Shown: positions 32,398-50,122, numbered from the stretch's first letter. The stretch is DNA of 64,000 bases from Deltaproteobacteria bacterium (GCA_036574075.1 JAINCN010000031.1:386-64385), one strand, 5' to 3'. Made by a program: numbers and translations. Notes: generated by a model from the letters alone, not told the origin.

Positions 32398-32433
32398 GCA
32401 TCCGATGTCAAGGCGTGGTATGGCTCGAAAGAG

Positions 32434-34851
32434 ATGCAAGCACGCCTTTTTGTTACCATGCCCATGGAGTCCGACGGAAACGCCCATGTCTTTCTCCGGG
32501 GTCATCTTTCAGGGCTTCCGTTTTCTCCTGCCGACGTCACTGCAGGCGTGGAGAACGAGCTCCAGGCGGTCGTAAAGGGCAGCCGGGACTCCGTTGACCT
32601 GCCCCTCGCCATTGCGGGGTCCAACTACTATGCGAACATCGTGAAAAGGGCCGTCTCTGGCGAGGCCAGAAGGCGCGAAGTGACTGCACTTGAAGACTTC
32701 CTCGCCGCAAATGACGAGGGGGTCTGGGAACACAGTTGGGTCCGTTTCCCCAGAAGGTGCCTCTCGCCCGGGGCCGTCGAGATCCTCGAAGAGGATCTTC
32801 GGGCAGACAGGCGTGATCCTGATTCTGGCCCTCGGAGGGACAGGGAGCGGTTTCTTTTTGAAAAGGCGGGTGAAGACTGGGTCCGGGTCCCAGTGAGTTA
32901 TCTCTTGAAGATCGCCCTTGCGGACGCCGTCCTCTCGCCCGGGCCTCTTCCCAGGGGAATCCGGCTCGCCGGGCGTGCCCTTTTGGACCACTTCCTGAAC
33001 GACAACGTCTCCCCGGAGACCACGTCCTTTTTCGTGCACGAGGGGGGCGGCGGATGGGGGCCGGGACGGGCCGCGGCACTGGAGACGGCCCTCCGCTATC
33101 TCCTGACCCAGCTCATTGTCCGATACGCGAACATCAAGTTCGACCTCGTCCAGAACGATCAGGAGGTCGTGGTGTACTTCGCTCCGTGCCCTCCGGTCCG
33201 GCTCAGGGAGCTTAACGAGATCATATCGGACGCCTTCTACGCGGAGCTCTTTGTGAGTCCGTGTCTTTCAGGCTGGGATCGGGGCGAGGAAAAATATCGC
33301 TACATGCTCCTCTGCCACCAGGTCCTTGGCAGGAGCCAGCTCAACGCCATCGGCAAGCTCCGGGACGCGGGGATCGTCACGAACAACCTGGTCGTCCTGC
33401 CCAATACATCCCACATCGGGCTTGCAAACAACGGCACCCACGTGACCCTCGGGAGCAAGGCACTGACGCGTCTCCTTGCCGAGGGGCATCCCTGGTTCGG
33501 CCCACGCCAGGAAAAGTACATAGGGGACCTGGTCACCAAGGTAGTCGAGCACTTTCTGCCCCTTTTCGTCGGCACGTACACGGCCGCGCCCTGGAGGCTC
33601 TCCTTTGCGGAATTCCATCCGGAAAAGGTCCTCGGTTACCTCCCCCATGAGCTCGACTTCACCCATCTCAGGATGATATGGAGGCGCTGGAAGGGAAAGG
33701 CCCGTAACAAGGTCCTCGGAAGGGCCTTCACCCCATTCGGCCCCCGATGGATCGATCGTCCCCTGAGTGCCCTTCTCGGGCTAAAGGGGGATTTCGTGCC
33801 TGATTTTCGTCTCGTGGACTATTTTGTCTCCCTCATGAGCACGGAGAGCTCTCCGGGGCTTGACGGAAGACTTGGCAATCAAGAACGTCTCAAACGGGAT
33901 CTGGCCACCCTTGGGGTCTTCGACCCTGCCATGGCGACCTATCTGCTCTTTCGCCAAAGGGAATACGAAAAGTCTGGTTTTTTCGGCTTCGAGGCCAGGC
34001 ACTACAGCCTTTTTGAGGGATTCGACCGGGATATGACCCCTGCGGTGGACCTTCAGGCCCTCGTGACAGCCTTTGCCTTTAGGTCTGTCCTCCATTCTGA
34101 GGTCCGCCATGAACACATTCCGGACGATCCCGAGACGGAAAGCGAGCGGAGGCAGATCTTTTTCGGGGCAGCCATCGGGATCCCCACCTTTTTCGTGAGA
34201 AAGGGCACACGGAACGCCTTTTTGAAAAGGGTCATGGAAAGGACGGAAAAGGTGAGGGAGAGCAGGAGATATCCGGGCTTTCTCCGGGTGCATAACGATG
34301 AATACAGAAAGGCCCTCGTCCGCGTCCTCCGGGAGGACGGGGCCGATCTCATCGAGGATTTCGGTCTGGAGGACACGGTCAGGGATCTGTCCGAAAGGTT
34401 CGAACTGCACGGGGAAAAGGACGCACTTTCCCGCATTACCTCAGGGGTCATCCAGACCGCTGGCCAAAGGGATGCCTTCTCTTGTGAGGCGCGCGCCTTT
34501 AACGTGGCCGCTGAGCGATATTTCCGTACGACCCTTCGCCGCAGGCACGTAACAGAGGCTTACGCCTTTTTCAAGGAGACGATCCGATCCCTCGAGGGGT
34601 CAGGCGCCCTTGACGGGCGGCAGGAACGGGAATCAATCCGGGCCGTCCTCAAGGGGCGATCCGCTCTGGAGATCGTCCAGGAAGCGGAAAAGGACATCTG
34701 CCAGGATGCCGCCCACCTCGATTTGACCGTCCGGATCATCCATCTTCTCATTCTTGTAATCCACATCCTGGCGGGCCGAAACACGGCCGTGCATCCATTC
34801 GAGGAGATCATTTCCCATGATGCACCAGTATATCGAACGGGAATCGGGTAG
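32434..34851 (+). CDS. orphan 805-aa protein, no family recognised
   Basis: Long ORF with coding-like third-position GC. No motif I can assign, and only a hydrophobic C-terminal segment (LTVRIIHLLILVIHILAG). The start could also be 32458 or 32464. Confidence 0.7.
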   Translation: MQARLFVTMPMESDGNAHVFLRGHLSGLPFSPADVTAGVENELQAVVKGSRDSVDLPLAIAGSNYYANIVKRAVSGEARRREVTALEDFLAANDEGVWEHSWVRFPRRCLSPGAVEILEEDLRADRRDPDSGPRRDRERFLFEKAGEDWVRVPVSYLLKIALADAVLSPGPLPRGIRLAGRALLDHFLNDNVSPETTSFFVHEGGGGWGPGRAAALETALRYLLTQLIVRYANIKFDLVQNDQEVVVYFAPCPPVRLRELNEIISDAFYAELFVSPCLSGWDRGEEKYRYMLLCHQVLGRSQLNAIGKLRDAGIVTNNLVVLPNTSHIGLANNGTHVTLGSKALTRLLAEGHPWFGPRQEKYIGDLVTKVVEHFLPLFVGTYTAAPWRLSFAEFHPEKVLGYLPHELDFTHLRMIWRRWKGKARNKVLGRAFTPFGPRWIDRPLSALLGLKGDFVPDFRLVDYFVSLMSTESSPGLDGRLGNQERLKRDLATLGVFDPAMATYLLFRQREYEKSGFFGFEARHYSLFEGFDRDMTPAVDLQALVTAFAFRSVLHSEVRHEHIPDDPETESERRQIFFGAAIGIPTFFVRKGTRNAFLKRVMERTEKVRESRRYPGFLRVHNDEYRKALVRVLREDGADLIEDFGLEDTVRDLSERFELHGEKDALSRITSGVIQTAGQRDAFSCEARAFNVAAERYFRTTLRRRHVTEAYAFFKETIRSLEGSGALDGRQERESIRAVLKGRSALEIVQEAEKDICQDAAHLDLTVRIIHLLILVIHILAGRNTAVHPFEEIISHDAPVYRTGIG

Positions 34852-35821
34852 GATCCGTACCGAGGTCTTCTTTGGTGAATCGCTCGTGAAGTTTCTCTAT
34901 GGTCCGGTTCGTGAAAATGCCCCGGCCCTGTTTGATATCCTCACGTCGGCACGCATATCCTCCTTTCTGGGATTTCTGAACTACGATGTCTTTCTCGGCC
35001 AGCGCATCAACAGGCGTTTTTTCCAGGACTTAGGGATCGACCTCTCCGAGTGTCTCGACCCACCACATACCCTTGACACGCCCCGAAAGGTCTTTGAGCG
35101 CAAGATCCGCTACTGGGAACTCCGGCCACTTGCGCATGGACAGGATAGTATCCTTTCCCCTGCTGATGCGAAGGCATTCGTGGGCTCCCTTCGAAAGTCA
35201 TCGAGCCTGTTCGTCAAGGGGAAGTTTTTCGATCTCGCGGAGCTCCTCGGAGAGGAAAGAGGCGGCTGGGTCCCTGCCTTCCAGGATGGGGACTTCGCCG
35301 TATTTCGGCTGACGCCTGAAAAATACCACTACAACCACGTCCCGGTCTCTGGAAAGGTCCTCGACATCTACGAGATCCCCGGGAGATATCATTCCTGCCA
35401 TCCGGAGGCGGTCCTCTCGATTCCCACCCCCTATTCCAAAAACAAGAGGGTGGTGACGATCCTGGATACGGACCTGCCCGGGGGGACCGGGGTCGGCCTC
35501 GTCGCCATGGTAGAGATCGTGGCCCTCATGATCGGTGGGATCGAGCAGTGCTACAGCGAAGAGCGTTACGACTACCCACAACCGATCACACGCGGGCTCT
35601 TTCTTCGGGCAGGCTGTCCCAAGAGCCTCTTTCGCCCTGGGAGCAGCACGGTGATCCTGCTCTTTCAGAAGGATCGGGTCATTTTCGAGGAGGACATCCT
35701 TCGTAATCAGAACACTGTCAACGTGGAGAGTCGCTACAGCCTCGGGTTAGGCCGCCCGGTGGTGGAGACAGAGGTCCGTGTTCGATCTGCAGTCGCACGG
35801 GCGAGGAAGGTCAGGTCATGA
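34817..35821 (+). CDS. phosphatidylserine decarboxylase-family proenzyme
   Basis: 334 aa with FRLTPEKYHYNHVPVSG (PSD DYHR-type motif) and the self-cleavage motif FRPGSSTVILLF (GS|S/T). Overlaps the preceding ORF by 35 nt. Confidence 0.8.
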   Translation: MMHQYIERESGRIRTEVFFGESLVKFLYGPVRENAPALFDILTSARISSFLGFLNYDVFLGQRINRRFFQDLGIDLSECLDPPHTLDTPRKVFERKIRYWELRPLAHGQDSILSPADAKAFVGSLRKSSSLFVKGKFFDLAELLGEERGGWVPAFQDGDFAVFRLTPEKYHYNHVPVSGKVLDIYEIPGRYHSCHPEAVLSIPTPYSKNKRVVTILDTDLPGGTGVGLVAMVEIVALMIGGIEQCYSEERYDYPQPITRGLFLRAGCPKSLFRPGSSTVILLFQKDRVIFEEDILRNQNTVNVESRYSLGLGRPVVETEVRVRSAVARARKVRS

Positions 35822-36873
35822 CGATCTCTGCCCTCGTTTTTCTCGCCGGGCTTTCCGTCTTTTTGGGCATATCTCTTTTTTGGGGCATACGCGTCCTTCC
35901 GGGTGAGAGGTGGCAGATGCTCGCCTCAGTGCCCATTGTCAAGGAAAAGGACGGGACATGGTCCGGCCTAAACCTGACCTATTATGGTGCGCTCACGGCA
36001 AATTCCTATGTCCTTGCTGCGGCGGTCTTTCTCGTCCTTCTCGCCTCGGTCGGGGTCCCGGTCTGGCTCTCTGTTTCCGGGGTCGTCCTGGTCCTTGTCG
36101 TCTGCATGCCCCTTTCACGGGTCATCGCGGGGGTCGTTGAAGGAAAGCGCCACACCTTTACCGTGGGCGGGGCGTCTTTTGCCGGGCTCATGCTGGGACC
36201 GCCGGTCTTTTGGGGCCTGAACGCCGTGGCAGATGCCCTTGGGGCCGGCGCGGTGGAGGTGGCCCCGGCGGTCACGGCCATGGCAGTCGCCTATGCCTTT
36301 GGGGAAGGGTTGGGAAGGCTCGCCTGCCTGAGCTTCGGGTGCTGTTACGGACGGAGGCTGGAGGAGGCGCCCCGCTTTCTTCAGCGGATGCTCATGGGCT
36401 GGGGTACGGTCTTTACGGGAAAGACCAAGAAGGCGGCCTACGAGTCCGGGCTGGACGGGGTGAGGCTCGTCCCGGTACAGGCCATGACAGCAGTCCTTTA
36501 CGCCGGAACTGGGCTCGTATCGACCGGCCTTTTTCTTCTCGGCTGGTACCGGTGGGCCTTTCTCTTGGCGGTCCTTGTCACCCAGGGGTGGCGGGCGTGG
36601 TCAGAGACACTTCGGGCAGATTTTCGGGGTGGAGGGAGGATCAGCGCCTATCAGTGCATGGCCGTTGCGGCCATGGCATATGCCGTCCTCCTTGCCTGGT
36701 TCCTCCCGGACGGAAGCGGCAGGTCCGATGTGCTCATGGGGATGAAGGCCGTCTCGAATCTCCCAACCGTCCTTTTCCTCCAGGGGCTCTGGATCGTGAG
36801 TTTTCTTTATACCGGCAGGAGTTCTGTGACGGGATCAAAGGTCACGTTTTACGTCTTCTCAGAGAGGATTTGA
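35818..36873 (+). CDS. Lgt-like (prolipoprotein diacylglyceryl transferase family) polytopic membrane protein
   Basis: 351 aa with about 7-8 hydrophobic helices and a GRLACLSFGCCYGR motif resembling the Lgt GRxGxFxNGxxxG block. ATGA overlap with the PSD gene stop. Confidence 0.55.
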   Translation: MTISALVFLAGLSVFLGISLFWGIRVLPGERWQMLASVPIVKEKDGTWSGLNLTYYGALTANSYVLAAAVFLVLLASVGVPVWLSVSGVVLVLVVCMPLSRVIAGVVEGKRHTFTVGGASFAGLMLGPPVFWGLNAVADALGAGAVEVAPAVTAMAVAYAFGEGLGRLACLSFGCCYGRRLEEAPRFLQRMLMGWGTVFTGKTKKAAYESGLDGVRLVPVQAMTAVLYAGTGLVSTGLFLLGWYRWAFLLAVLVTQGWRAWSETLRADFRGGGRISAYQCMAVAAMAYAVLLAWFLPDGSGRSDVLMGMKAVSNLPTVLFLQGLWIVSFLYTGRSSVTGSKVTFYVFSERI

Positions 36874-38068
36874 TGGATGAGGCGGCGTCTTTGAGGATCT
36901 CCGCCTTGTCCGTCATCTCCCACGGAAGACCCAGGTCGGCCCGACCGACCTGTCCGTACGCGGCCAGTTTCTTGAAGAATCCGCCCTTTATCATGCGGGG
37001 CAGATGGCGAAGCCTGAACTGTTTGAGGATGCCGGCCGGACGGAACTCGAAGTGTTCAGAGAGGAGACGCACGATCTCCTCGTCCGGGACCTTGCCGGTC
37101 CCGAAGGTCTCGACCAGGATGCTGACAGGCCTGGATCGACCGACTGAATAGCTCACCTGGACCTCGCACTCGTCGGCGATCCCGGCGGCCACCACATTCT
37201 TTGCGGCGTATCGCGCGGCATAGGCGCCTATGCGGTCCACACGCCTCGGATCCTTGCCGCTCAGGGCGGCGCCGCTGTGCCTGGCGTATTCTCCGTAGGT
37301 GTCGATGGCGTTCTTTCGCCCGGTGAGCCCTGAATGGACCGCGGGCCCGCACCCCAAATGGGAAAAATCGGACCGGATGTCGATGTTCGTGTCTGCGTCC
37401 GGGCGGATCTCCTCCTCCTTGAAGACCTCGTCGATGACCGTCTCCTTGACGTCGTCGAAAAGCCTCTTGGGATCGGCCGATTTCTTCACGCATGTCTGGA
37501 TCGTGATGGTCTGGATCCGGCTCGGTCGTCCATTTTTGTATTCCACCCCCACCTGGGTCTTGGCGTCAGGCGTGAGATAGGGAAGGATGTTCGTGTAACG
37601 GACCCGTGAGATCTTCCTGGCGAGCCGATGGGCAAGGAAGATGGGCATGGGCATGAGGACAGGCGTCTGATTGCAGGCATAGCCGAAGGCGTTGGCCTGG
37701 TTGCGTACCGGAATCCGCTCGATCTCGTCCTCGTCGATGGCCAGCTCGTCGAAACGGAGGGCTTCTTCGAGGGGCTGTTCCTTGAGGCTCGTGAGCGCTG
37801 TGCAACTCCGTCCGCTGAAGGCCTCGTCCCGGTAGCCCACCTCGTTGATGATCTCCCTGGCCACATACGGGACGTCCACAACCGCTGTCGAGGCGAACTG
37901 GACCGCGAGGAAGACGATGGACTGGGAGATGGCGCATTCGGCGATGATGGACGAGAGGGAGTCCTGCTGGAGGAACCTGTCCACGATGGCGTCGCTGATC
38001 TGGTCACAGAGTTTGTCCGGATGTCCTTCCGTGACCGATTCTGAGGTGAAGAGAAAATCCTTTCTCAT
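36842..38068 (-). CDS. divergent S-adenosylmethionine synthetase (MetK-family) protein
   Basis: 408 aa from ATG 38068, which overlaps the ATPase stop (ATGA). N-terminal FTSESVTEGHPDKLCDQISD. PDAKTQV, GLTGRK and SGKDPRRVDRIGAYAARY are conserved, but the GAGDQG and GD(C) motifs are altered (see findings). Confidence 0.8.
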   Translation of the reverse strand: MRKDFLFTSESVTEGHPDKLCDQISDAIVDRFLQQDSLSSIIAECAISQSIVFLAVQFASTAVVDVPYVAREIINEVGYRDEAFSGRSCTALTSLKEQPLEEALRFDELAIDEDEIERIPVRNQANAFGYACNQTPVLMPMPIFLAHRLARKISRVRYTNILPYLTPDAKTQVGVEYKNGRPSRIQTITIQTCVKKSADPKRLFDDVKETVIDEVFKEEEIRPDADTNIDIRSDFSHLGCGPAVHSGLTGRKNAIDTYGEYARHSGAALSGKDPRRVDRIGAYAARYAAKNVVAAGIADECEVQVSYSVGRSRPVSILVETFGTGKVPDEEIVRLLSEHFEFRPAGILKQFRLRHLPRMIKGGFFKKLAAYGQVGRADLGLPWEMTDKAEILKDAASSIKSSLRRRKT

Positions 38069-41000
38069 GGCGATGGCCTTTTTCGTTTTTTGATGGACTC
38101 GTTGATCAGGAACGGGAGGCATGCGGCGCATCCCGTAACGACCGCATCCACGGCCCCGATCGCTCCTATTCCGAGGAGGGAGCGGAGGCCGGGAAGGAAA
38201 AGGGCTGCCCCCTGAAGGGCCAGGGATCCGCCCACGGCCGCATGGAGATATGGGTTGGGCCGGGAGGCGACCTCGAAGGCGTTTTTCGTCTCAGACCTGC
38301 AACTGTACGCATGTAGAAGCTGGGAGGTGGTGAGGGACAGGAAGGCCATGGCGCTGGCCCCGGGGCCCACACCGTGGCGGAGGATGCCGTAGCCGTAGGC
38401 CCCGAGCGTGGAGACGCTGATGATGGCCGCCTCCCGGCCGATTCGGTGCATGTCGTCACGCCTGACGATCGCCTCTCGCGGATCCCGCGGGGGATGATCC
38501 AGGACGTCCGCCTCCGGGGCCTCCATGGAGAGGGCAAGGCCGGGAAAGATGTCCGTCACGAGGTTTATCCAGAGAAGCTGCATCTCCGTCAGGGGCTGCC
38601 CGGTCCCGAGGATGTTCGACACAAAGGAGACCATGATCTCGCTCATGTTGGTGGAAAGGAGATACCCGAGGGACTTGCGGACATTGGCATAGATGGTGCG
38701 GCCCCGGGAGATGGCAAGGATCATGGTCTCGATCCGGTCGTCCTCGATGACCACGTCAGCCACCTCGCGGGCCACGTCGGTCCCGGTCTCTCCCATGGCC
38801 ACACCCACGTCGGCCGCCCGTAGGGCAGGGCTGTCGTTCACCCCGTCCCCGGTCATGGCCACGACCTTTCCGGCCCCCTGGAGGGCCTGGACGATCTCGA
38901 GCTTGTTGGCTGGGCTCACCCGAGAAAAGATGCTCGCCCGCACGGCGAGTCCTTGAAGTGCCTGGGGATCGAGGTTCGAGATGTTGGAAGAATCGAGGAT
39001 GACCAGTTTGTCCTCTCCGCTGATCTCGAGTTCCTTGCCCACGGCAAAGGCGGTCGGAGACTGGTCTCCGGTGATCATGACCGTGTCGATCCCCGCCCGG
39101 TGGAAACGTCTGATGAGCTCCTTGACCCCGGGCCGAATGGGATCCGTCATGCCGGTAAGCCCAAGCCAGGTAAGGTCCTGTGTGAGGACCTCGTCATCCG
39201 GAAGGGGATCCCCGTCAAGGAACTTGTAGGCAACCCCGAGGACCCGGAGCGCCCTGCCTGCCATGCGTTCGTTCTGCATGCGGATCCTCATGATGTCTTC
39301 TTCCTCGAGGGGGCACTGCGCACCTTCGAGGATCCAGGTGCGGCACAGGGCCAACACCTCCGAGGGGCTACCCTTGACGGCGACGAAGTGGCGACCGGAG
39401 GGGAGGCGATGGACGGTCACCATGAAGTTCCTTTGTTCGGCCCTATGAAGGATCTTGACCCGAGGGGTGTTGGTTTTGAGACGATGGATGTCGATACCGC
39501 CCTGCACGGCAAGGGCGAGTAGGGAGTTTTCCGTGGGGGTCCCCTGGATCTCGAAGTCGTTTCCGTTGCGAGGAATGATCTCGCTTTCGTTGCAGAGGGC
39601 GCATACTACGAGGATTCCCCTGAGCTCGTCGGCGATGTCAAGCCCATCCTGCGGGCAGGGAGCGAGGGACCATTGCCCGTGGATGGGGACGACCTTCTCG
39701 CCTGCGTAAAGCTCCACGACCTTCATGCGGTTTTCTGTTATCGTCCCGGTCTTGTCGAGGCAGATGACCTGGATAGCGCCCAGGGCCTCGATGGCGTCCA
39801 GATGCCGGATGAGGATGTTGTGACGCCTCATGTCACGGACCCCGAGGGCAAGGGTCGTTGTGGCCACGGTGGGAAGGCCTTCTGGGACCGCTGCCACGGC
39901 GAGAGAAATGGCGGTCTTGAGCATGGGCAGGAGTCCGTGGCCTCTAAGGAGACCGAGAACGAATACGAGCCCGCAGAGGACGCCGGAGATGGCCACGAGT
40001 CGGGTCCCGATGGCGTCAAGCTGGCGCTCCATGGGTGTCTCAGGCACTTGTGCCTCGCCGACCAGGGTCTGGATCCTGCCCATTTCCGTGTAACGCCCCG
40101 TGGCGACGGCGATGGCAAGCCCCTGTCCTCCGGTAACAAGGGTGCCCATGTAGCACATGTTCGTCCGATCGCTCAAGGGAATACTACCTTCGGATGCGAT
40201 GCGCAGAGGGTTTTTCCCGACCGGAATCCCTTCTCCGGTGAGAGCGGATTCGTCGATGCTCAACCTTGCTGACTCGACGATGCGGGCGTCGGCAGGGATG
40301 TAGTTTCCAGGCCGAAGTACGATGAGGTCTCCGGGGACGATCTCCTCAGCGCCGATCTCCAGGAGTTTTCCTTCCCGTATCGCAATGGCCCTGGGGCGTA
40401 CGAGCGTCTTAAGGGAGTGGATGGTCTTTTCCGCCTGACTCTCGGTTATGTAGCCTATGATGGCGTTGATGACCACGACCCCAAGGATGACGGCAGCGTC
40501 CATAAGTCCGCCCGTGAGGGCAGAGATGCCAGATGCCAAACCGAGGAGTGCCACGGGAACCGAGGCAAACTGCCCGAAAAAGATCTTGAGCCCTGAACGG
40601 GGAACCGCCTCTGGCAGGACATTCGGGCCAAACCTTCGGAAACGTTCTTGGGCCACGATGGAGGAAAGGCCGTCGCGGGGCGAGGTCTCGAGAAACCGTG
40701 CCACCTCGTCAGACTCCATGAGGTGCCAAGCAAGGGCCTTTTGTTCCTCAGATGTACTGACCAGCCTGACGAGCCGACGCCTGGAGATTGCGGATTTCTT
40801 CTTTTTAGTGGATCGGTTCGGGGGATCGTATGCAGATAGAGAGAGGGTTTTCCCTACTCCTACAACGGGTTTTGAACCGTTCCTCGATTTGACGACCGCT
40901 TCAACAATGGAGATGACCTGCGCAAGTTCCTGAGTCGCCGGAAACGTGACGAGAAGGTGACCGGTCAAGGGGTTGGCCTTGGCCTGGGAGATCAACTTCT

Positions 41001-41124
41001 CGTCACGCAGACGGCTTTCGAGATGACGCTTCAGGTCCTGGGAGCGGTAAAGGCCGGTGACGTGAAGACGTACCCTTCCCGGAACGGCCGTATGGACCGG
41101 CTTGACGACACGCGATGCCTCCAT
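38065..41124 (-). CDS. P2-type cation-transporting P-type ATPase with N-terminal HMA-like domain
   Basis: 1019 aa with DKTGTITENRM, PEGLP (VAAVPEGLPTV), MITGDQ and TGDGVNDSPALRAADVGVAMG. The first ~75 aa (VPGRVRLHVTGL...ANPLTGHLLVTF) are paralogous to the two small proteins upstream. Confidence 0.9.
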   Translation of the reverse strand: MEASRVVKPVHTAVPGRVRLHVTGLYRSQDLKRHLESRLRDEKLISQAKANPLTGHLLVTFPATQELAQVISIVEAVVKSRNGSKPVVGVGKTLSLSAYDPPNRSTKKKKSAISRRRLVRLVSTSEEQKALAWHLMESDEVARFLETSPRDGLSSIVAQERFRRFGPNVLPEAVPRSGLKIFFGQFASVPVALLGLASGISALTGGLMDAAVILGVVVINAIIGYITESQAEKTIHSLKTLVRPRAIAIREGKLLEIGAEEIVPGDLIVLRPGNYIPADARIVESARLSIDESALTGEGIPVGKNPLRIASEGSIPLSDRTNMCYMGTLVTGGQGLAIAVATGRYTEMGRIQTLVGEAQVPETPMERQLDAIGTRLVAISGVLCGLVFVLGLLRGHGLLPMLKTAISLAVAAVPEGLPTVATTTLALGVRDMRRHNILIRHLDAIEALGAIQVICLDKTGTITENRMKVVELYAGEKVVPIHGQWSLAPCPQDGLDIADELRGILVVCALCNESEIIPRNGNDFEIQGTPTENSLLALAVQGGIDIHRLKTNTPRVKILHRAEQRNFMVTVHRLPSGRHFVAVKGSPSEVLALCRTWILEGAQCPLEEEDIMRIRMQNERMAGRALRVLGVAYKFLDGDPLPDDEVLTQDLTWLGLTGMTDPIRPGVKELIRRFHRAGIDTVMITGDQSPTAFAVGKELEISGEDKLVILDSSNISNLDPQALQGLAVRASIFSRVSPANKLEIVQALQGAGKVVAMTGDGVNDSPALRAADVGVAMGETGTDVAREVADVVIEDDRIETMILAISRGRTIYANVRKSLGYLLSTNMSEIMVSFVSNILGTGQPLTEMQLLWINLVTDIFPGLALSMEAPEADVLDHPPRDPREAIVRRDDMHRIGREAAIISVSTLGAYGYGILRHGVGPGASAMAFLSLTTSQLLHAYSCRSETKNAFEVASRPNPYLHAAVGGSLALQGAALFLPGLRSLLGIGAIGAVDAVVTGCAACLPFLINESIKKRKRPSP

Positions 41125-41142
41125 GCAGGGCGCAGATGTCTC

Positions 41143-41823
41143 TTACTCTTTGGCCTTGACCGGAGCCGCCTTTTTCACGGAATGCGTCTCCACCTCATGC
41201 ACGGCCTCGGCCGGTGGCGCAGCGGTCCTTCCCGTTTTGGGCAGGATGGCGCAGAGGACCTCCTTCGCACCGCTGGCGACACCGACAAGGACCTCTGTAA
41301 CCGAGGTGGCCGCGCTCTTTCCGATGGTTCCAGCAGCCTCGATTGCCCCGACTACAGCGACCTTGGCGACCTCCTCCACGTTTCCTCCGACCTCTTTAGT
41401 CGCCTCGATTACGCCATCAACAGCCCGGCGAGCGACCATGGCGACGTCAGCACCCACGTCTGCTGCCCCCTTGACGGCGCCGCGCACCGTCTGGCTCGCG
41501 AAGGTCACAAGGTCTCCCCCTACGTCGCTCACCCCCATGATCACGCCCTTGGCGACACTCTTGGTCCCCATGATGAGCCCGGTACCCACCTCCTCGGTGG
41601 CCTGGATCGCGCCCTTGATGACATCCGAACACACCTTGAGCCCTTCCTTGCTCACATCTCCGGTGGCACGAAGGGTGCTGGAGACCGTGTTACGGGCCAG
41701 GGAGACGATTTCGGCCTCGATCTCGTTGATTCCCTTGAGGCTGTTGACGATCCCTTCCTTGACAATACTTCCCGCCTTGTCGAGCGGCGTTCCGGTTTTT
41801 TGGATCTCTTTCTCTTCGGCCAT
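41143..41823 (-). CDS. Ala/Gly/Val-rich protein made of 15 tandem 11-residue repeats
   Basis: 226 aa with SD AGGAGG 6 nt upstream of the ATG. Residues 24-188 split exactly into 11-mers (VIKGAIQATEE/VGTGLIMGTKS/VAKGVIMGVSD/...). Confidence 0.75.
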   Translation of the reverse strand: MAEEKEIQKTGTPLDKAGSIVKEGIVNSLKGINEIEAEIVSLARNTVSSTLRATGDVSKEGLKVCSDVIKGAIQATEEVGTGLIMGTKSVAKGVIMGVSDVGGDLVTFASQTVRGAVKGAADVGADVAMVARRAVDGVIEATKEVGGNVEEVAKVAVVGAIEAAGTIGKSAATSVTEVLVGVASGAKEVLCAILPKTGRTAAPPAEAVHEVETHSVKKAAPVKAKE

Positions 41824-41991
41824 GGTGTCCTCCTGTGCAGTTTGGGTTATTTCGGTCGATGATTTTTCTCTCTGTGTACTCTGTGCCCTCTGTGGTGAGG
41901 GGTATGTGCAGTTGAAGTTATTTCGGTCAGTAATTCCTCTGGCCGTTTTCAGAAAGATCCCGTTCGATCGTACGTATAAGACCCTTCATGA

Positions 41992-42474
41992 TCATTTCGT
42001 TGATTCGCCTCCCTTTAGAAGCAGGTTCATTCCGTACCAGAGGGCGGTGTACCAGGCAGGTCCGGCGACCCTGCCCTGAAGGATCTGATACGCCCCCCAA
42101 CCCGCCAAGGCGAGAAAAGCGGCGGTTGGGATGTCAATCTGTCCGTTCGTTCCGGCCGTCACTGCGGAATTCAGGGTTCTGTATCCGTCTTTTATCCTTT
42201 GGGACAAGGGGCGAGTGTGTTTAGATGGCTGCCGTACGATGGTAAAAAGGCCAAGTGTCTCTGCCGCTTGACTGATTTGCCCAGGTGTTGAGCGATGCAT
42301 GATGAGTACACTGGCGGTTGTGGGGTTGGCCCTGACCTTCGTGACCATGTCGATATTGGAAAAGGCCTTTTCAATGTCTGCGAAATAGCCTGGGTCGTAT
42401 CTCCTTTCAGGGATCCTGAGACGGATTCTCCCTGTGCTTTCGTGAGCGACGGACGCCTCAGGAAGCCTTTTCAC
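41992..42474 (-). CDS. HMA-like domain protein with C-terminal hydrophobic region (copy b)
   Basis: Contains TGRIRLRIPERRYDPGYFADIEKAFSNIDMVTKVRANPTTASVLIMH and a C-terminal TM-like IPTAAFLALAGWGAYQIL...WYTALWYGMNLLL. There is no in-frame ATG after the upstream gene stop, so I propose GTG 42474, and the start is uncertain. Confidence 0.55.
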   Translation of the reverse strand: MKRLPEASVAHESTGRIRLRIPERRYDPGYFADIEKAFSNIDMVTKVRANPTTASVLIMHRSTPGQISQAAETLGLFTIVRQPSKHTRPLSQRIKDGYRTLNSAVTAGTNGQIDIPTAAFLALAGWGAYQILQGRVAGPAWYTALWYGMNLLLKGGESTK

Positions 42475-42751
42475 CCTCTTCCGCCTGGGAAGCCAAAGTG
42501 GCCTTGGTATGCTCTTCCTCGATTTCGGCCTGGACCTCGGCCCACATGTCCTCAATGGACTCGGCAAGCTCTGCGGCGGCCTCCTTCCCCTTCTCGTAAA
42601 AGAGAAACCCACTTTTAATGAAGGCCTTGGCTACGGGTTTGACGGTCTGGCCCAGGACAGGGATGAGTTTAGGGGCGACGGCTGCGGCGCCCAGCCCGAT
42701 GGCAAGACCTGCTAATGTCTTGTTCTTGAAGATATCTTCGACGATGCCCAC
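42458..42751 (-). CDS. small membrane-associated protein (DUF5132-like, from memory)
   Basis: TM-like LAGLAIGLGAAAVAPKLIPVL followed by an acidic helical tail. GTG 42751 has a strong SD (GGGAGGGA 6 nt upstream). The track start, ATG 42778, has none. Confidence 0.6.
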   Translation of the reverse strand: MGIVEDIFKNKTLAGLAIGLGAAAVAPKLIPVLGQTVKPVAKAFIKSGFLFYEKGKEAAAELAESIEDMWAEVQAEIEEEHTKATLASQAEEGEKAS

Positions 42752-43131
42752 GTTTTTTCCCTCCCATTTTATATTCATGAGGATACCGAAATATTAAACT
42801 TACGCAAACGGGAAGATTCATTACTTTCCTCATGGAGATTGTTAGCAAAAGGATACCGATAGATAGTGTATCATGGGTGCATGATTGACGCCGCCTCCAA
42901 CCTCTTCGACACAGCGACCTTGCTCGTCCTTCTGCGCCATGCCGAGCAGGAGAATGATTTGCTGCGCGATCAGATCCGTTCTCGTTCAAAAAGGCCCGAG
43001 ATGCAATGCGCGATACTTTCCCCTCCCCATCCCTACCCAGCGGGGGAGGGGAAGGGTGGGGGATCATCAGCCGCATGGGCTGAAAAATCGAAGTAACGCC
43101 GCGAGAATCGGGTTTTTCAGTGGGATCAGGG

Positions 43132-43500
43132 CTATATGAGCGCTGATACAAAGGAGAGGCCCATGGATTCAAGGGCCTTTTCCGCGGTGTATCCGAAGAT
43201 GGCCTTTCCGATAAATTCACCGGCGACCGCGGCCTGCCTGCTGACAAAATCCTCCTGTTCGATCTTTGTGCGGTCGAAATAGCCCGAGTTTTCCAGGGTC
43301 GTGAGGATGATGTCGTGATGGAGGACGTTTTTGTCGTACGTGATGAGGATGCTTCCTGTTGTGGTGTTGGTCTCGACGGACCTCACTCCCCGGAGCTGGC
43401 GCACTATGGTAGAGACATGTTCGGCCCGTGCGGGATTCTTTTTGATCAATGGGGTCTTGATCCGGATCCTGCCCGCAACCTCATGAAGATAGTAGCTCAT
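43132..43500 (-). CDS. HMA-like domain protein (copy a)
   Basis: 122 aa from ATG 43500 (SD GGAGAGG). Contains AGRIRIKTPLIKKNPARAEHVSTIVRQLRGVRSVETNTTTGSILITYD. The 206-aa track ORF is a 5' over-extension. Confidence 0.7.
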   Translation of the reverse strand: MSYYLHEVAGRIRIKTPLIKKNPARAEHVSTIVRQLRGVRSVETNTTTGSILITYDKNVLHHDIILTTLENSGYFDRTKIEQEDFVSRQAAVAGEFIGKAIFGYTAEKALESMGLSFVSALI

Positions 43501-43772
43501 GATGTCCTCTCCATGTATATGATCTTTTTGTAAGTTTTGCACATGGGATATTTTGAGCACCTGAATCTGATGCAGGTCTTCTCCCGCCTGTAAACGTACA
43601 TGATGTGCCCGCATAAGGGACAAACAAGTCGGGATCCCGGAAGTAATTTTGGCTCTGCGGAGCCGGAATACTGCCGGCCGCATGACATGCAAAGATAGCG
43701 TTGTTTTCCTCTTCCGGTCTTGCCATATCGGTAAAAGGTGTCTGATCCGCAATCAGGACAGCGTATTTCCAT
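43497..43772 (-). CDS. double zinc-ribbon protein (IS1 InsA-like ribbon plus topoisomerase-type C4 finger)
   Basis: 91 aa from ATG 43772: MEIRCPDCGS..GKQRYLCMSCGRQY then CPLCGH..FRCSKYPMC. ATGA overlap with the next gene. Confidence 0.65.
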   Translation of the reverse strand: MEIRCPDCGSDTFYRYGKTGRGKQRYLCMSCGRQYSGSAEPKLLPGSRLVCPLCGHIMYVYRREKTCIRFRCSKYPMCKTYKKIIYMERTS

Positions 43773-43796
43773 ATAACTTCTTAATACCGCTTGTTT

Positions 43797-43836
43797 GTTA
43801 CAGGCGTGTGACAAAATTGTGACAATTCTGTGACAA
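43797..43836 (-). promoter_or_regulatory. two tandem Pho boxes (four heptamers, 11-bp phasing)
   Basis: Minus strand reads TTGTCAC-agaa-TTGTCAC-aatt-TTGTCAC-acgc-CTGTAAC. A TATTAA hexamer (43781-43786) lies 10 nt downstream and the ATG follows 8 nt after it. Confidence 0.7.
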
Positions 43837-43951: not shown

Positions 43952-44254
43952 ATGTCCCGCATCGTGATCGAAAAAAGGCATGCACTTGGCGTCGATGAGG
44001 CATGGCGCCGAATAGTTCCGATTATCGAGGAAGCGGCCCGGACCTATGGCCTCGATGTCACTTGGGAAGATGGCAGATGTTTTTTCACCGGTCCGGCAAC
44101 CGGTCATGTGAATGTGTCTGAGGAATCTGTGCGTCTCGATGCGCGGCTCGGATTTGCCGCCCTCCTTTTTCGTTCCGCCATCGAGAGGCAGGTGCGGGAG
44201 GGCCTTGAAAAGGCCCTAAGTGACCTGGAAGATGATTACGATCTTGGTGCTTGA
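43952..44254 (+). CDS. polyhydroxyalkanoic-acid-system family protein (TIGR02610-like)
   Basis: 100 aa from ATG 43952. The pattern I.IEKRHALG...W..G...FTG...G.V.V....V.LDARLGF...F...IE..V...L matches my recollection of this small family. Confidence 0.6.
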   Translation: MSRIVIEKRHALGVDEAWRRIVPIIEEAARTYGLDVTWEDGRCFFTGPATGHVNVSEESVRLDARLGFAALLFRSAIERQVREGLEKALSDLEDDYDLGA

Positions 44255-46163: not shown

Positions 46164-47813
46164 TTACGACTCTATCGCCCGGTATTTTTCCCGCAAATGG
46201 TTGCGGATAGCTATGGAAGTGAGATTGAGGATCATGATGACGACTACGAGGAGAAAGGCAGTTGCAAAGACGAGTGGACGTACAGCATCCACGTTGGGGC
46301 TCTGGAAACCCAGATCATATATATGGAAACCAAGATGCATGAACTTGCGTTCGAGATGGATAAATGGATAGTTGCCATCGATGGGGAGAGAGGGTGCGAG
46401 CTTGACCACTCCGACGAGCATGAGCGGGGCGACTTCTCCAGCGGCACGGGCGACCGCGAGGATGAGGCCGGTCATCATGGCAGGGCTTGCCATGGGGATA
46501 ATGGTCCTCCAAAGGGTCTCTGCCTTGGTGGCCCCGAGCGCCAGGCTTCCTTCCCGAATGTTGCTCGGTATCCTTGCAAGGCCCTCTTCGGTGGAGACGA
46601 TCACGACAGGAAGGGTGAGGAGGGCGAGGGTAAGGGATGCCCACAGAAGCCCAGGGGTTCCGAAGGTCGGATCCGGCAAGGCCTCTGGGAAAAAGGCCTC
46701 ATCGATCCAGCCGCCGATGAAATAGACAAAGAAACCGAGACCGAAGACCCCGTATACAATGGAGGGGACACCGGCAAGATTGTTGACCGCAATACGGACG
46801 AGACGGGTGAGAATGCCCTGTTTTGCGTATTCTTTTAGGTAAAGGGCTGCTATGACGCCAAACGGTGTGACGATGACGGACATGATGAGAACCATTACGA
46901 CCGTGCCGAAGATGCACGGAAAGATTCCTCCCTCTGTGTTCGCCTCCCGCGGGTCTTCGGTCAGGAGTTCCCACAATTTCTCCGCGTAAAAGGCGAGTTT
47001 TGAGCCGACTCCCATCTCATTCGGGCGATACGCCCTTACCACCTTGGACAGTGGGATATCCACAGTACGTCCGTCCATGATCTCGGCAGTAAAGGATCCT
47101 TTGCCGATCTCCTGATAGAGCCCGATGAGCTGATCCTGGAAGGCCTTGTATTGGGAGTCCAATGCCTCCTTTTGCCGCTCCAGCTCGGCAAATTTTTCAG
47201 GATCGGTCTCGTTCGCCAGTTCGAGTTTGCGTTTCTTCAGGCGCAGGCGTTCGATCTTGTAATTTATGGACCCGATCTCGTCCCTCTCGATATGGCGTAT
47301 TCGGTCATGAAGGGCAAGAACGCCTGGCAGCAGCTCCTGGAGCTTGGCCCAGGCGGATTCCCCTTCCGCCACAACCTTCCCGTCCACAGAGACCGATTTG
47401 ATATATCCATAGAGATTCCCCCATTCCCGCCGCTCGACGACCATGAGGGCATGTGGGTACCGGGTCTCCTTGATGGATGTCTCTGGAACCCAGCGGAAAT
47501 CGAACCCGAATTTGTCCCTGTTTCCGACCTTGACGAGATAACGTTTCTGGAGGGTGTCCGGGTCCCCTGCCGCAGATCCTGTCTTATCGGCGTGTTGTGC
47601 GGGAATTGTTTCTTCTTCAGTGATCTCTCCTATGAGGCGGCTCTGGGATCCATCCTCCACGACGATGGCTTCCATGACGTCTAAAGGCCAGAAAAAACCG
47701 AGTCCTCGGATGGCGATCAGAAGGATGATCCCGAAGACCGCGACAAGGCTTATACTCACGCCTCCGGCGCTCAGCCACACCCACGGGTCACCGCTTTTTA
47801 TCCAATCGCGCAT
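46164..47813 (-). CDS. pstA: phosphate ABC transporter permease PstA (long form)
   Basis: 549 aa: an N-terminal TM, a ~250-aa extracytoplasmic insert with a coiled coil, then the PstA permease core ([20 protein letters not shown]). Confidence 0.9.
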
Positions 47814-47825
47814 GGAGCTACCTTT

Positions 47826-50072
47826 TTAGAGAGTGCTGTATCTTTTTCTCAAACGGTGGCGCACGACCTCAGCCAGCGTGTTGAAGATGAAGGTCAGGCC
47901 GAAAAGTACGAGCCCTGAGAGAAAGAGGACGCGGAAGTGGGTGCTCGCCACCTCGGCCTCTGGCATCTCAACAGCAATGTTCGCGGAAAGGGAACGGAAT
48001 CCCTGAAAGATGTTGAGGTCCATGATCGGGGTGTTTCCCGTTGCCATGAGAACGATCATGGTCTCTCCTACGGCCCTGCCGAGGCCCATCATGACAGCAG
48101 AAAAGATCCCGGGGCTTGCAGTAAACAGCACTACCTTCTGCAGGGTCTGCCAGGGTGTGGCCCCGAGGGCGAGGGATCCTTGCGTGAGGTGTTTGGGGAC
48201 CCCGAATATGGCATCTTCTGTGATGGAGAAGATGACGGGTATCACTGCAAAGCCCATGGCAATACCGACTATGAGGCAGTTTCGCTGGTCGTAGGATATG
48301 CCGAGGTCATGGGTGATCCATTCTCGGATATTTCCGCCAAAAAATATGTTTTCGATCCCCGGAGCGAGGGTATGAGCGATGAAGCCCGTGGTGATGACGA
48401 CGGGGATGAGGAGCGCGGCCTCCCATCCCTCTGGTATGCGGCTTCGCATGTCGAGGGGAAGAAGGGACCAGAGGTACGAGGCGAGGAAGATTGCAGGAAA
48501 CATCAAGAGGATGATGAGAAAGATCTCCACGAGATGCGCCTCTGCGTAGGGGGCGAGCCAGAGGCCGGCGATAAATCCGAGAATGACTGTGGGAAGGGCC
48601 TCCATGATCTCTATGGAGGGCTTTACGATCCGTCTCATCTCCGGGCGCATGAAATGTGCGGTGTAGATGGCACCGAGGATCGCAAGTGGGATGGCGAAAA
48701 GCATGGCGTAAAAGGCGGCCTTGAGGGTGCCGAAGGTTATAGGGACAAGGCTGAACTTGGGTTCGAAGTCGTCGGTCGCAGCAGATGACTGCCAGACATA
48801 GGCGGGCTTTTCGTAATTCTCGTACCAGACCTTTTGCCACAGGGTATGCCATGAGATATCGGGATGTTCGTTGTCCACGAGCCTGAACTGGATCGTGTCA
48901 CCCGCCTGGGCAAGAAGGGCGTCGGCCCTTGGGCCCACAGCCATGGTCGCGATGCCTGTGGGTGCGATCTCTTGTGTGAGGAGCACACGGTGGGCGGTCG
49001 CGTGGTAGATCCCGAGCGTGCCCTTGGCATCAGAGGCCAAGAAACCCTTTCGTCCGTATTCGGGTGCGAGGCCTGTGATAGGAGAGCCCTGGGCATGAAA
49101 ATCCCTAATGAAGGTCAATTCGGGTGCGCCCTTGTCGGATCTCACCGGAAACCATTGGGCTATCCTGCCTGTGGATGTCCCGCATATGAGAGAGATGCCC
49201 CCGGTGAGAAGGGTGATGGCCGTCAATTCTTCACCCGGCTCTGTCACGCGCACAGTCTGGATCTTTCGTGGGGACCCAGCCTCAGTGAGGTCAAAAAAGT
49301 CCACCTCACCCGACCGGTACGCCACATACAGGGATTGCTGAAGCGGAGGGACGAGGAGGTCGAGAACGGGGCCGTGGGTGTTTCCAGCTGTGGCGTGGGT
49401 GATGTCGAGGCGCACCTCGTCTGAGAGAAAGGATCGGATCCGGCCGATTCGAACGACCTCTACGGAACCTGATTCCGTCAGGCCCGCAAGGGTGCCACCC
49501 TCCTCGTCGGCCTGAACGGCCAGGCGGACAAGGGGGCCTTGTGTGGTCACGGACAAGGGCGTCTCACCGAAAGGATAGGAAACATGGGGTGTTATGAGCC
49601 TTTTGTCGCCAGGAAACGTAACTTTGTAAGAATGTTGACATATGAGGGCCGATCCGTTCGAAAGCCCATATGCGAAGATCCCGCTCCTGGGAGAACCCGT
49701 GGCAAAGGAGGTGATCCTGGTGCCTTGTGGAATGGGTGCCACCTGTTCAAGAACGATATGGCCGTTTGATGTATCGAAAAAGGTGATCTTTCCGTCGTCA
49801 GTGAATCGGGATCCGATCTCATGAAGTTCCTCCATGGCGAGGTACAAGGTCTGCGATCCGGTCGGGCCTGGAATGGGATAGGAGACCCCTTTGGAGATGT
49901 GGGCAGGGCGGAATAGGGGGATGACGACGGAAAATAGGTAGAGAAAGATGAGAAGGAGGGCGATGATGACCCCAACGCCGCCTATCGCAACACAGTAACG
50001 GGCGAGCACGTCCTTTATCATGCGCCACGTGCGAAGCCTTACTGTCGAGGTCATATGTGTTGAATTTTCCAT
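47826..50072 (-). CDS. pstC: phosphate ABC transporter permease PstC (long form)
   Basis: Permease core with [14 protein letters not shown], preceded by a ~430-aa extracytoplasmic region. The track start, GTG 50126, lies inside a hairpin. ATG 50072 or 50054 is more plausible, so the start is uncertain. Confidence 0.85.
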   Translation of the reverse strand: MENSTHMTSTVRLRTWRMIKDVLARYCVAIGGVGVIIALLLIFLYLFSVVIPLFRPAHISKGVSYPIPGPTGSQTLYLAMEELHEIGSRFTDDGKITFFDTSNGHIVLEQVAPIPQGTRITSFATGSPRSGIFAYGLSNGSALICQHSYKVTFPGDKRLITPHVSYPFGETPLSVTTQGPLVRLAVQADEEGGTLAGLTESGSVEVVRIGRIRSFLSDEVRLDITHATAGNTHGPVLDLLVPPLQQSLYVAYRSGEVDFFDLTEAGSPRKIQTVRVTEPGEELTAITLLTGGISLICGTSTGRIAQWFPVRSDKGAPELTFIRDFHAQGSPITGLAPEYGRKGFLASDAKGTLGIYHATAHRVLLTQEIAPTGIATMAVGPRADALLAQAGDTIQFRLVDNEHPDISWHTLWQKVWYENYEKPAYVWQSSAATDDFEPKFSLVPITFGTLKAAFYAMLFAIPLAILGAIYTAHFMRPEMRRIVKPSIEIMEALPTVILGFIAGLWLAPYAEAHLVEIFLIILLMFPAIFLASYLWSLLPLDMRSRIPEGWEAALLIPVVITTGFIAHTLAPGIENIFFGGNIREWITHDLGISYDQRNCLIVGIAMGFAVIPVIFSITEDAIFGVPKHLTQGSLALGATPWQTLQKVVLFTASPGIFSAVMMGLGRAVGETMIVLMATGNTPIMDLNIFQGFRSLSANIAVEMPEAEVASTHFRVLFLSGLVLFGLTFIFNTLAEVVRHRLRKRYSTL

Positions 50073-50122
50073 TGGAGCCTGCAGGTCTTGGGCTTGCGTG
50101 TGATGCGCGTCGCAGAAAACGG

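Follow-up and report, generated by a model that had tools for sequence, protein, structure and literature searches.

A Pho-box-fronted gene cluster that may encode a scaffolded P2A-type cation pump

A stretch of 64,000 nucleotides on a metagenome-assembled contig of a Deltaproteobacteria bacterium (GCA_036574075.1 JAINCN010000031.1:386-64385; hereafter the window) carries on its minus strand seven genes that bring together a P-type cation ATPase, three copies of a heavy-metal-associated (HMA)-like domain, a small DUF5132 membrane protein, a helical-repeat protein that we call REP, a MetK paralog, and a zinc-ribbon protein, with two Pho boxes in front. The question that this locus raises is what joins such a pump to such partners and to phosphate. 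A sequence-only reading of the window had inferred a phosphate-starvation-induced system for cation handling or sequestration; this inference fits all of our findings and gains from ferrosomes and from the PacL/CtpC system as analogues. We give an even chance to the explanation that the cluster encodes a phosphate-starvation-controlled, scaffolded P2A pump module of the same architectural kind as PacL/CtpC effluxosomes and the Fez clusters of ferrosomes. The domain families were already known; for the cluster itself, its Pho control, a 16-nt upstream element, the family of REP, and the alteration of MetK, the searchable literature gave no description. In a full-text search, DUF5132 occurred in one paper and CoBaHMA in five, none of them on this cluster.

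The pump and its CoBaHMA domains

The ATPase, which is 100% identical to an NCBI protein from a metagenome-assembled genome (MAG), contains five P2-type cation-ATPase Pfam domains, the N- and C-terminal ones included, and the motifs DKTGT, TGE, PEGLP, and GDGVND. The sequence-only reading had taken PEGLP as the mark of a P2-type pump as opposed to a CPx pump, and the domain set agrees with it. Among P2 pumps the protein falls in P2A: of the proteins with solved structures, Listeria LMCA1 and human SPCA1 come nearest to it (E ~1e-139), followed by SERCA, and it stays under the curated equivalog cut-offs, with 608.4 versus 798.3 bits for the best NCBIfam model (PMR1-type) and 501.6 versus 703.4 bits for the SERCA-type model. 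The cation ligands are kept, namely the Glu of transmembrane helix (TM) 4, the Asn and Glu of TM5, and the Asn, Thr, and Asp of TM6. A Gln stands at what we take to be the position of SERCA Glu908 and LMCA1 Arg795. We conclude that, judged by its sequence, the pump is of the P2A (Ca2+/Mn2+) type and not a heavy-metal P1B ATPase.

Ahead of this catalytic core lies one of three related domains, the other two lying in the small proteins a and b. The sequence-only reading had seen a domain of ~60 amino acids three times over and had named HMA_2 as its possible family; all three exceed the PF19991 (HMA_2) gathering score of 30 bits (protein a, 52.5; protein b, 51.7; ATPase N terminus, 32.6). It had also set them apart from classical copper chaperones for want of a CxxC site, and indeed all three regions are free of cysteine. 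What they have in common instead is the pattern H...GR.R within Arg-rich motifs (GRVRLHV, GRIRLRIP, and GRIRIK) that are conserved in homologs. Protein a keeps the signature Y.H.V.GR.R.K.P ... N..TGS across 46 homologs, and among 120 ATPase homologs G16 is essentially invariant, with H11 present in 118, R17 in 119, R19 in all 120, and Lys or Arg at position 21 in 116. HMA_2 is the same family as CoBaHMA, which was first seen at the N terminus of calcyanin, a marker of intracellular calcium carbonate in cyanobacteria (PMC8890360). Anionic lipids are a proposed ligand of its basic patch (Gaschignard et al. 2024, as quoted in bioRxiv 10.64898/2025.12.07.689555).

The one CoBaHMA domain that we modeled, that of protein b, was predicted by AlphaFold2 from a 3-sequence alignment to adopt a ferredoxin-like fold with an extra N-terminal strand, beta0 (strands 6-13, 16-20, 44-50, 55-60, and 78-80, and two helices; pLDDT 82-91). 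Its best matches in the PDB by Foldseek were MerP, HIPP43-HMA, CopZ, and ATP7B domains (TM-score normalized to the target, TMt, 0.57-0.69). Beyond the domain, where the sequence-only reading had placed a TM tail, the model shows instead a C-terminal helical hairpin of lower confidence and moderate hydrophobicity (maximal 19-residue Kyte-Doolittle mean 1.08); thus, the HMA-like assignment of protein b stands, and its TM tail is better described as this predicted hairpin. A word-indexed protein search with protein b returned three near-identical sequences only and gave no link to Fez proteins.

These data bear directly on a heavy-metal resistance operon of the classical sort, with HMA chaperones that would pass Cu, Zn, or Cd on to a P1B pump. 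The HMA-like fold of the protein b model and weak matches of protein a to PF00403 (E 0.0039) and CopZ (1.7e-5) are what such an operon would lead one to expect. We nevertheless consider it scarcely credible, given three domains without cysteine, scores far below the cut-offs, and a pump with PEGLP and P2A domains in place of CPx. The PF00403 metallochaperone assignment itself was rejected on the missing cysteines and on the score of protein a (18.0 bits against a cut-off of 24.8).

Gene order, conservation, and promoters

The minus-strand order given by the sequence-only reading, from the zinc-ribbon gene through protein a, DUF5132, protein b, the repeat protein, and the ATPase to MetK, was recovered with every gene present. 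The features of the cluster and its flank are as follows.

43952..44254, plus strand: PHA_gran_rgn protein, 100 amino acids, divergent from the zinc-ribbon gene, the Pho-box intergenic region being common to both
43797..43836, minus strand: two Pho boxes made of four direct half-sites (TTGTCAC three times, CTGTAAC once) at 11-bp pitch
43781..43786, minus strand: -10-like hexamer TATTAA, read from the sequence
43497..43772, minus strand: double zinc-ribbon protein, 91 amino acids, with an InsA/IS1595-type ribbon and a topoisomerase-I-type C4 ribbon
43132..43500, minus strand: HMA_2/CoBaHMA protein a, 122 amino acids (PF19991), with a conserved C-terminal helix
43018..43053, spacer: GC-rich inverted repeat of 11 bp with a 14-nt loop, arms 43018-43028 and 43043-43053
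42816..42831, minus strand: copy of the 16-nt element, GAGGAAAGTAATGAAT, a 13/16 match to TAGGYAAGTAATGAAA
42780..42808, minus strand: sigma-70-like promoter TTTGCG-17-TATCCT, read from the sequence and parallel to aligned blocks of other loci
42458..42751, minus strand: DUF5132 protein (PF17195), 97 amino acids from a GTG; the longest open reading frame (ORF), 42778-42458, has 106 amino acids
41992..42474, minus strand: HMA_2/CoBaHMA protein b, 160 amino acids, with a C-terminal helical hairpin (PF19991 and AlphaFold2 model)
41143..41823, minus strand: helical-repeat protein REP, 226 amino acids, with a 22-residue repeat and without a Pfam family
38065..41124, minus strand: P2A-type cation ATPase, 1019 amino acids, with an N-terminal CoBaHMA domain (Pfam domain set)
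36842..38068, minus strand: MetK paralog, 408 amino acids (TIGR01034)

Several of these genes are tightly coupled. The stop of the zinc-ribbon gene and the start of protein a overlap as ATGA, as do the stop of the ATPase and the ATG of MetK, and the GTG start of protein b at 42474, from which the NCBI annotation also derives 160 amino acids, overlaps the end of the DUF5132 gene by 17 nt. The true start of DUF5132 is most likely GTG 42751, because a GGGAGGG Shine-Dalgarno sequence lies 7 nt upstream of it and because the resulting product of 97 amino acids matches the length of its relatives (93-101). The promoter at 42780..42808 supports the same codon, since transcription from it would begin downstream of the alternative ATG at 42778. 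With this start, the 380-nt gap of the sequence-only reading holds.

The hairpin that had been noticed in this gap (43018-43053) is present, perfectly complementary over 11 bp and unique within the window. It gives no indication of an intrinsic terminator, no T-run following it, or of a structured RNA (spacer fold z = -0.34 against shuffles; no credible Rfam match), and both ideas were rejected. An Rfam search of the spacer for a metal riboswitch or another structured leader gave two matches only, both far below the gathering score. An ORF of 76 amino acids without a Pfam match runs through the spacer on the opposite strand (window 42866-43096, plus); it is probably no gene.

We assessed conservation by a scan with a REP alignment over one genome per species, which found 203 genomes, and drew loci from the best 80 of these. 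In 39 of the 49 REP loci with enough flanking DNA, the core of DUF5132, HMA_2, REP, ATPase, and MetK occurs in this order, while six of the 49 hold solitary REP paralogs. The hosts of core loci include Nitrospirota, Desulfobacterota, and others, at least four phyla in all, and 30 of 54 other loci show the same 4-nt overlap where the ATPase gene ends and MetK begins. Thus, the genes are strongly co-conserved elsewhere, and the tests by which the sequence-only reading might have fallen did not overturn it. HMA_2-P2A fusions of equal length are common in Nitrospirota, Thermodesulfobacteriota, and Planctomycetota.

Phosphate genes are frequent in the vicinity. In the first three neighborhoods, where DUF5132, HMA_2, a protein of 222-230 amino acids, ATPase, and MetK stand in the same order, the cluster adjoins pstSCAB-phoU, PhoH, PsiE, a PlcP-like phosphoesterase with a glycosyltransferase, CorA, and DUF3562; PhoH, PsiE, and the PlcP-like phosphoesterase with a GT4 glycosyltransferase recur nearby, as do OlsB/OlsA-like and GT21 genes, the identities of which were read from N-terminal sequences without a database match. 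Across 72 core loci, pst/phoU genes share the locus in 20, the zinc-ribbon gene in 33, and PHA_gran_rgn, in deltaproteobacterial versions and at varying positions, in 12. The window region is itself a Pho island, with pst, phoU, and phoH nearby, which is also what one would see if unrelated Pho-regulon genes merely shared an island and formed no functional unit. We hold this to be highly improbable, because order and strand are conserved in at least four phyla, 4-nt overlaps are widespread, and a common cis element precedes the genes.

The window lacks two sets of genes seen beside the cluster in Nitrospirota: a third HMA_2 protein of 86 amino acids (L001 5801-6270, L004 5934-6194, and ~20 other loci) and small Cys-rich proteins of ~70-78 amino acids that form three families in 20-23 loci. 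Reduced or altered versions also exist. The megaplasmid pMVF16-1 of Microvirga sp. VF16, a cultured aerobe, carries a CYTH gene, two DUF5132 genes, a CoBaHMA-P2A pump, two HMA_2 proteins, and DUF445, with neither REP nor MetK (L086 4758-12958), and offers a possible experimental entry point. On a Nostoc plasmid, DUF454, HMA_2, and DUF5132 accompany a P1B-type pump with two N-terminal HMA_2 domains. A search of a plasmid collection gave no match to REP, and for DUF5132 a match at chance level only.

The sequence-only reading had treated the seven genes as one operon. Their co-conservation stands, while the single operon probably does not: the cluster is more likely to consist of two transcription units, because the zinc-ribbon/protein a pair usually lies elsewhere (in most other genomes beyond MetK, on the opposite strand) and because the DUF5132 operon has a promoter of its own. 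Unit 1 comprises the zinc-ribbon protein and protein a; unit 2 comprises DUF5132, protein b, REP, the CoBaHMA-ATPase, and the MetK paralog.

The two Pho boxes that had been reported in front of the cluster are real and belong to unit 1. A motif scan (exact or 2-mismatch) placed the four half-sites, TTGTCAC three times and then CTGTAAC, at an exact 11-bp pitch from 43836 to 43797, and TATTAA follows 10 nt past the last of them and 8 nt ahead of the zinc-ribbon ATG. In E. coli, the PhoB promoter rule likewise puts the Pho box 10 bp upstream of the -10 hexamer, the classical geometry. The zinc-ribbon unit thus has the tandem 7-bp repeats, the 11-bp pitch, and the 10-bp distance to the -10 of a Pho-regulon promoter. 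Its mRNA is probably leaderless, because the -10 hexamer is 8 nt from the ATG and the gene has no Shine-Dalgarno sequence. The same Pho motif precedes pstS (51257-51240), weaker copies stand ahead of another operon (32358-32397), and the window contains 12 matches against 2.9 expected, a number that 0 of 100 shuffles reached. In other phyla the strict consensus of the window was rarely matched, and a relaxed pattern of half-site pairs within 250 bp upstream of genes was needed; against 2% of random windows, it occurred ahead of 16 of 38 zinc-ribbon genes, 12 of 61 protein a genes, and 8 of 62 DUF5132 genes.

Upstream of DUF5132, a different signal is conserved. The core 8-mer of the element TAGGYAAGTAATGAAA is found in 34 of 57 DUF5132 upstream regions, compared with at most 8 in shuffles, and the exact 14-mer in 29 of 86 loci. 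Most loci with the element have T[AG]GACA ~8 nt past it, and TAnAnT lies a further 17-18 nt on in the nine loci inspected by eye; TTTGCG-17-TATCCT in the window corresponds to these blocks. The DUF5132 operon is thus predicted to have its own sigma-70-like promoter with a conserved 16-nt element, which looks like the mark of a small regulon of divalent-cation genes.

Two other accounts of the conserved leader were discarded. RNAalifold found zero consensus pairs between the element and the DUF5132 start in 20 leaders, which, with conserved blocks that fit a -35/-10 promoter, spoke against a leader RNA or riboswitch. The idea that the 16-nt element codes for a short peptide was dropped because the frames after ATGAAA end variably and the nucleotides of codon 6 are GAC without exception, a pattern that argues for conservation of the DNA itself.

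Copies of TAGGYAAGTAATGAAA also stand ahead of solitary REP paralogs, of a DUF3562-like gene, and of genes that we read from N-terminal sequences, without a database match, as CDF-type cation efflux and MntP/YtaF-like membrane proteins. These additional sites are L051 19674, L055 18723, L039 15904, L012 18024, L057 9459, L063 9777, and L075 8636.

Partner proteins and the possible work of the module

The DUF5132 protein scores 41.8 bits against a PF17195 gathering score of 25, and 31 of 32 relatives match the family. As the sequence-only reading had it, this is predicted to be a small membrane protein, and it is the only small protein of the cluster with a classical hydrophobic segment (N-terminal, residues 24-42 of the 106-amino acid ORF; Kyte-Doolittle mean 1.75; with GxxxGxG). 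Along its long Ala-rich helix runs an acidic stripe, E57, E61, E64, D68, E72, and E76, that is invariant or nearly so in the 32 sequences. Nine of the 32 match YtxH weakly.

REP had been described as an 11-mer repeat protein; the actual repeat has 22 residues, with a hydrophobic period of 3.67 residues and a composition rich in Gly, Ala, and Val. AlphaFold2 predicts seven stacked helices (pLDDT 82.6, pTM 0.71), for which the PDB matches were designed helical repeats only, and a Pfam search found no family. A search at E <= 1e-3 gathered 968 representative clusters. In the three neighborhood copies first aligned, REP is 61-66% identical to the window protein, compared with 54-57% for the pumps. 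Elsewhere, REP domains are fused to a C-terminal MucR/Ros zinc finger or an N-terminal CsbD domain (P0126, P0128, P0141).

The zinc-ribbon protein matches PF03811 (2.1e-9) and NF050000 (1.5e-12) and, weakly, PF01396; with all 8 Cys conserved in 39 homologs, it is a candidate nucleic-acid-binding regulator.

From these parts, the explanation that we favor, a scaffolded P2A pump module, may be drawn as follows. Once phosphate is exhausted, the pump would clear the cytosol of a divalent cation, Ca2+ or possibly Mn2+, at the time when the phosphate-based cation buffers, polyphosphate, nucleotides, RNA, and anionic phospholipids, would be shrinking. The DUF5132 protein, anchored in the membrane, would dock by its acidic stripe where the CoBaHMA domains of the pump, protein a, and protein b have their conserved basic patch, and would gather and stabilize all three as a membrane platform, as PacL1 does with the N-terminal 85 residues of CtpC. 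REP would serve as a soluble scaffold of this platform, the zinc-ribbon protein may regulate unit 2 at the 16-nt element, and the cation would be delivered to the periplasm or to a ferrosome-like vesicle.

Several points weigh against this explanation. We infer the need for a calcium-type pump during phosphate starvation, and the model leaves both the MetK paralog and the very high conservation of REP unexplained. The motif scan found no Pho box in the 380-nt spacer upstream of the DUF5132 unit of the window, and the Pho-box enrichment ahead of the DUF5132 operon itself is modest (8/62). DUF1490 (PacL) and DUF6110 gave no match to any of 32 DUF5132 members at E <= 10, so that the likeness to PacL is architectural only. 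Finally, the best 80 of the 203 genomes with REP are all MAGs.

The MetK paralog exceeds the TIGR01034 cut-off (352.5 versus 309.4 bits) and is ~43% identical to E. coli MetK, compared with ~63% among paralogs. The methionine ligands of E. coli MetK are Gln98, Asp238, and Glu55 (PMC1282579). Of these, Asp238 has become His and Glu55 has given way to Arg, Val, or Gln in all 57 paralogs (the window copy and 56 from loci L001-L084), and most have Leu or Ser for Gln98, which the window copy keeps; GAGDQG is lost, the gating loop is replaced, and K269R, G258S, and F262L are family-wide changes. The ligands of triphosphate, Mg, and adenosine (H14, D16, K17, D163, K165, R244, K245, K265, and D271) are kept. 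The sequence-only reading had already called this MetK divergent. Because the methionine ligands are replaced while those of triphosphate and adenosine are kept, the substrate is probably not methionine, and an enzyme that has kept the one site and lost the other could well take part in phosphate chemistry. In Microvirga, a gene of the CYTH triphosphatase family is a neighbor, which may or may not be chance.

One alternative turns on this enzyme as a source of S-adenosylmethionine. In a phosphorus-free remodeling of membranes, the MetK paralog would boost S-adenosylmethionine for methylation or the synthesis of head groups. As phospholipids gave way to other lipids, the pump and the CoBaHMA proteins would regulate the cations of the envelope or detect that anionic lipids were being lost. 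Lipid genes recur nearby (PlcP-like with GT4, OlsB/OlsA-like, GT21, and phosphatidylserine decarboxylase (PSD)-like), the CoBaHMA basic patch is a proposed binder of anionic lipids (as quoted in bioRxiv 10.64898/2025.12.07.689555), and MetK is translationally coupled to the pump. However, replacement of Glu55 and Asp238 in 57 of 57 paralogs makes normal S-adenosylmethionine synthesis doubtful, the conserved core has no methyltransferase or BtaA/BtaB-type gene, and the lipid genes are occasional neighbors only. We regard remodeling as unlikely.

A neighboring plus-strand operon of the window (32358-36873), with the Pho-box-like sites at 32358-32397, encodes a protein of 805 amino acids without a Pfam match, a PSD-like protein, and a weakly LGT-like membrane protein; in L003, a pair of a 799-amino acid protein and PSD adjoins the cluster. 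This operon could make a phosphorus-free lipid, an idea that comes from the chemistry of Lgt, which attaches diacylglycerol to a cysteine thiol and so recalls the cysteine-glycerol lipids of phosphate-starved Desulfatibacillum (PMC11181052). Two oddities lie on the minus strand farther on: the presumed PstA and PstC (46164-50126) have 549 and 766 amino acids, compared with 280-312 for the permeases beside the cluster in L001 and L004, and an ORF at 51640-52806 joins YbeY (residues 30-139) to PdxJ (150-381), either as a fusion or as two genes merged by the longest-ORF call.

The other alternative puts the same proteins around a ferrosome-like, lipid-bounded organelle, into which the pump would load Ca2+ (or Mn2+) for storage with phosphate, pyrophosphate, or carbonate; we rate it as possible, at distinctly less than an even chance. 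Just as iron starvation derepresses fez genes, lack of the stored nutrient would induce it, REP and PHA_gran_rgn would form a coat or scaffold, and the MetK paralog would derive pyrophosphate and phosphate, or tripolyphosphate, from ATP. The parts list corresponds one-for-one to fez clusters except for the pump class, FezA and FezB suffice for ferrosome formation in E. coli (bioRxiv 10.1101/2025.09.22.677801), and ferrosomes hold iron phosphate with Fe:P ~1:1 (PMC13307979). In Microcystis, DUF5132 and CoBaHMA genes stand beside calcyanin (bioRxiv 10.1101/2024.07.07.602159). REP and PHA_gran_rgn, as extra soluble structural proteins, would be superfluous for plain efflux, and the MetK paralog keeps triphosphate but not methionine ligands. 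Against this, an R-rich/CoBaHMA N terminus also occurs on plasma-membrane pumps such as CtpC, no inclusion has been reported for carriers of the cluster, the core has no phosphate or carbonate transporter, and it would be a paradox for a cell starved of phosphate to lay down a phosphate mineral, unless it is preparing for resupply. Somewhat more doubtful still is the full version of this proposal, a new Pho-switched organelle in anaerobic Nitrospirota and Desulfobacterota in which the P2A pump would load Ca2+ (or Mn2+), a MetK-derived enzyme that no longer bound methionine would split ATP to feed in tripolyphosphate, pyrophosphate, or phosphate, and REP would be the coat. If true, prokaryotes would have in it a genetically defined counterpart of the acidocalcisome.

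Should the scaffolded pump module be correct, it would tie phosphorus status to divalent-cation handling in anaerobes that dominate sediments and aquifers. It gives testable partners to three families of unknown function, CoBaHMA/HMA_2, DUF5132, and the 226-amino acid repeat family, and it draws attention to an enzyme, derived from MetK, whose substrate pocket is altered. An anionic partner has long been sought for the basic patch of CoBaHMA domains; it may be DUF5132 with its acidic helix, which bears directly on how intracellular calcium carbonate forms in cyanobacteria.

Comparison with known systems

The MetK paralog has the three-domain fold of MetK and its triphosphate, Mg, and adenosine ligands but not Glu55, Asp238, GAGDQG, or the original gating loop. 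With the P2A Ca2+/Mn2+ ATPases LMCA1, SPCA1/PMR1, and SERCA, the pump shares the full domain set, the motifs, and the TM4-TM6 ligands, whereas its N-terminal CoBaHMA domain of ~90 residues is extra.

A Ca2+ transporter with similar company is known from the calcyanin (ccyA) neighborhood. The Microcystis genes for calcyanin and a Ca2+/H+ exchanger have on their flanks DUF5132 genes and the gene of a hairpin-bearing CoBaHMA protein, some of which are expressed together with calcyanin (bioRxiv 10.1101/2024.07.07.602159). The two neighborhoods thus share PF19991 domains with the beta0 strand, the conserved His, and basic residues, and DUF5132 and hairpin CoBaHMA genes next to a repeat protein rich in Gly and to a transporter, of Ca2+ there and putatively so here. 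They differ in that the transporter is an ATPase here and a CAX exchanger there and that the hosts here are non-photosynthetic anaerobes; the Pho link is new.

Fez clusters have three parts: a P1B-6 pump that carries RxRxR at its N terminus; FezC, which is annotated as HMA and contains an R-rich motif and two membrane helices; and the hydrophobic FezA with GxxxG. The R-rich motif is also found on related pumps such as CtpC (bioRxiv 10.1101/2020.01.10.902569). Shared with our cluster are the R-rich motif (RxR/RxRxR) on the pump N terminus and on accessory proteins, hosts that are mostly anaerobes, and, for fez, induction by nutrient starvation; by architecture alone, FezC resembles protein b, FezA resembles DUF5132, and the soluble R-rich proteins resemble protein a. 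We read the R-rich motif of Fez and CtpC pumps as the beta1 strand of a CoBaHMA-like domain. The CtpC N terminus scores just below the PF19991 threshold, which serves as a lead only. Control is by Pho here and by Fur there, where a fur mutant overproduces ferrosomes (PMC13307979). The defining P1B-6 motifs, D[YF]SCA in TM4 and HNxxT in TM6, are absent; since the pump is not P1B-6, this is not a fez cluster.

In M. tuberculosis, PacL1, with one TM segment and Glu/Ala repeats, binds residues 1-85 of CtpC and stabilizes the pump in membrane platforms (PMC9374683, PMC13043812), and PacL1 is related to DUF6110 proteins that are encoded with P1B-6 ATPases (PMC9374683). Both systems have a P-type ATPase with an Arg-rich, HMA_2-like N terminus of ~85 residues, and both pump operons encode a small protein with one membrane segment and a Glu/Ala-rich helix, represented here by the acidic stripe on the Ala-rich helix of DUF5132. 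They differ in the pump, which is P2A (PEGLP) here and P1B there; in the small protein, as DUF5132 has neither a DUF1490/DUF6110 match nor, at its C terminus, any motif for binding metal; in control, by Pho boxes here and by metal there; and in the additional CoBaHMA proteins, REP, and MetK paralog of our cluster. By analogy, the cluster would work like ferrosomes and effluxosomes yet is a member of neither the Fez nor the PacL system, because its pump is not P1B-6 and its DUF5132 protein does not match DUF1490 or DUF6110. If this holds, the principle of a small scaffold protein joined to an Arg-rich N-terminal domain, so far shown for P1B pumps only (ferrosomes and mycobacterial effluxosomes), extends to Ca2+/Mn2+ pumps of the P2A class.

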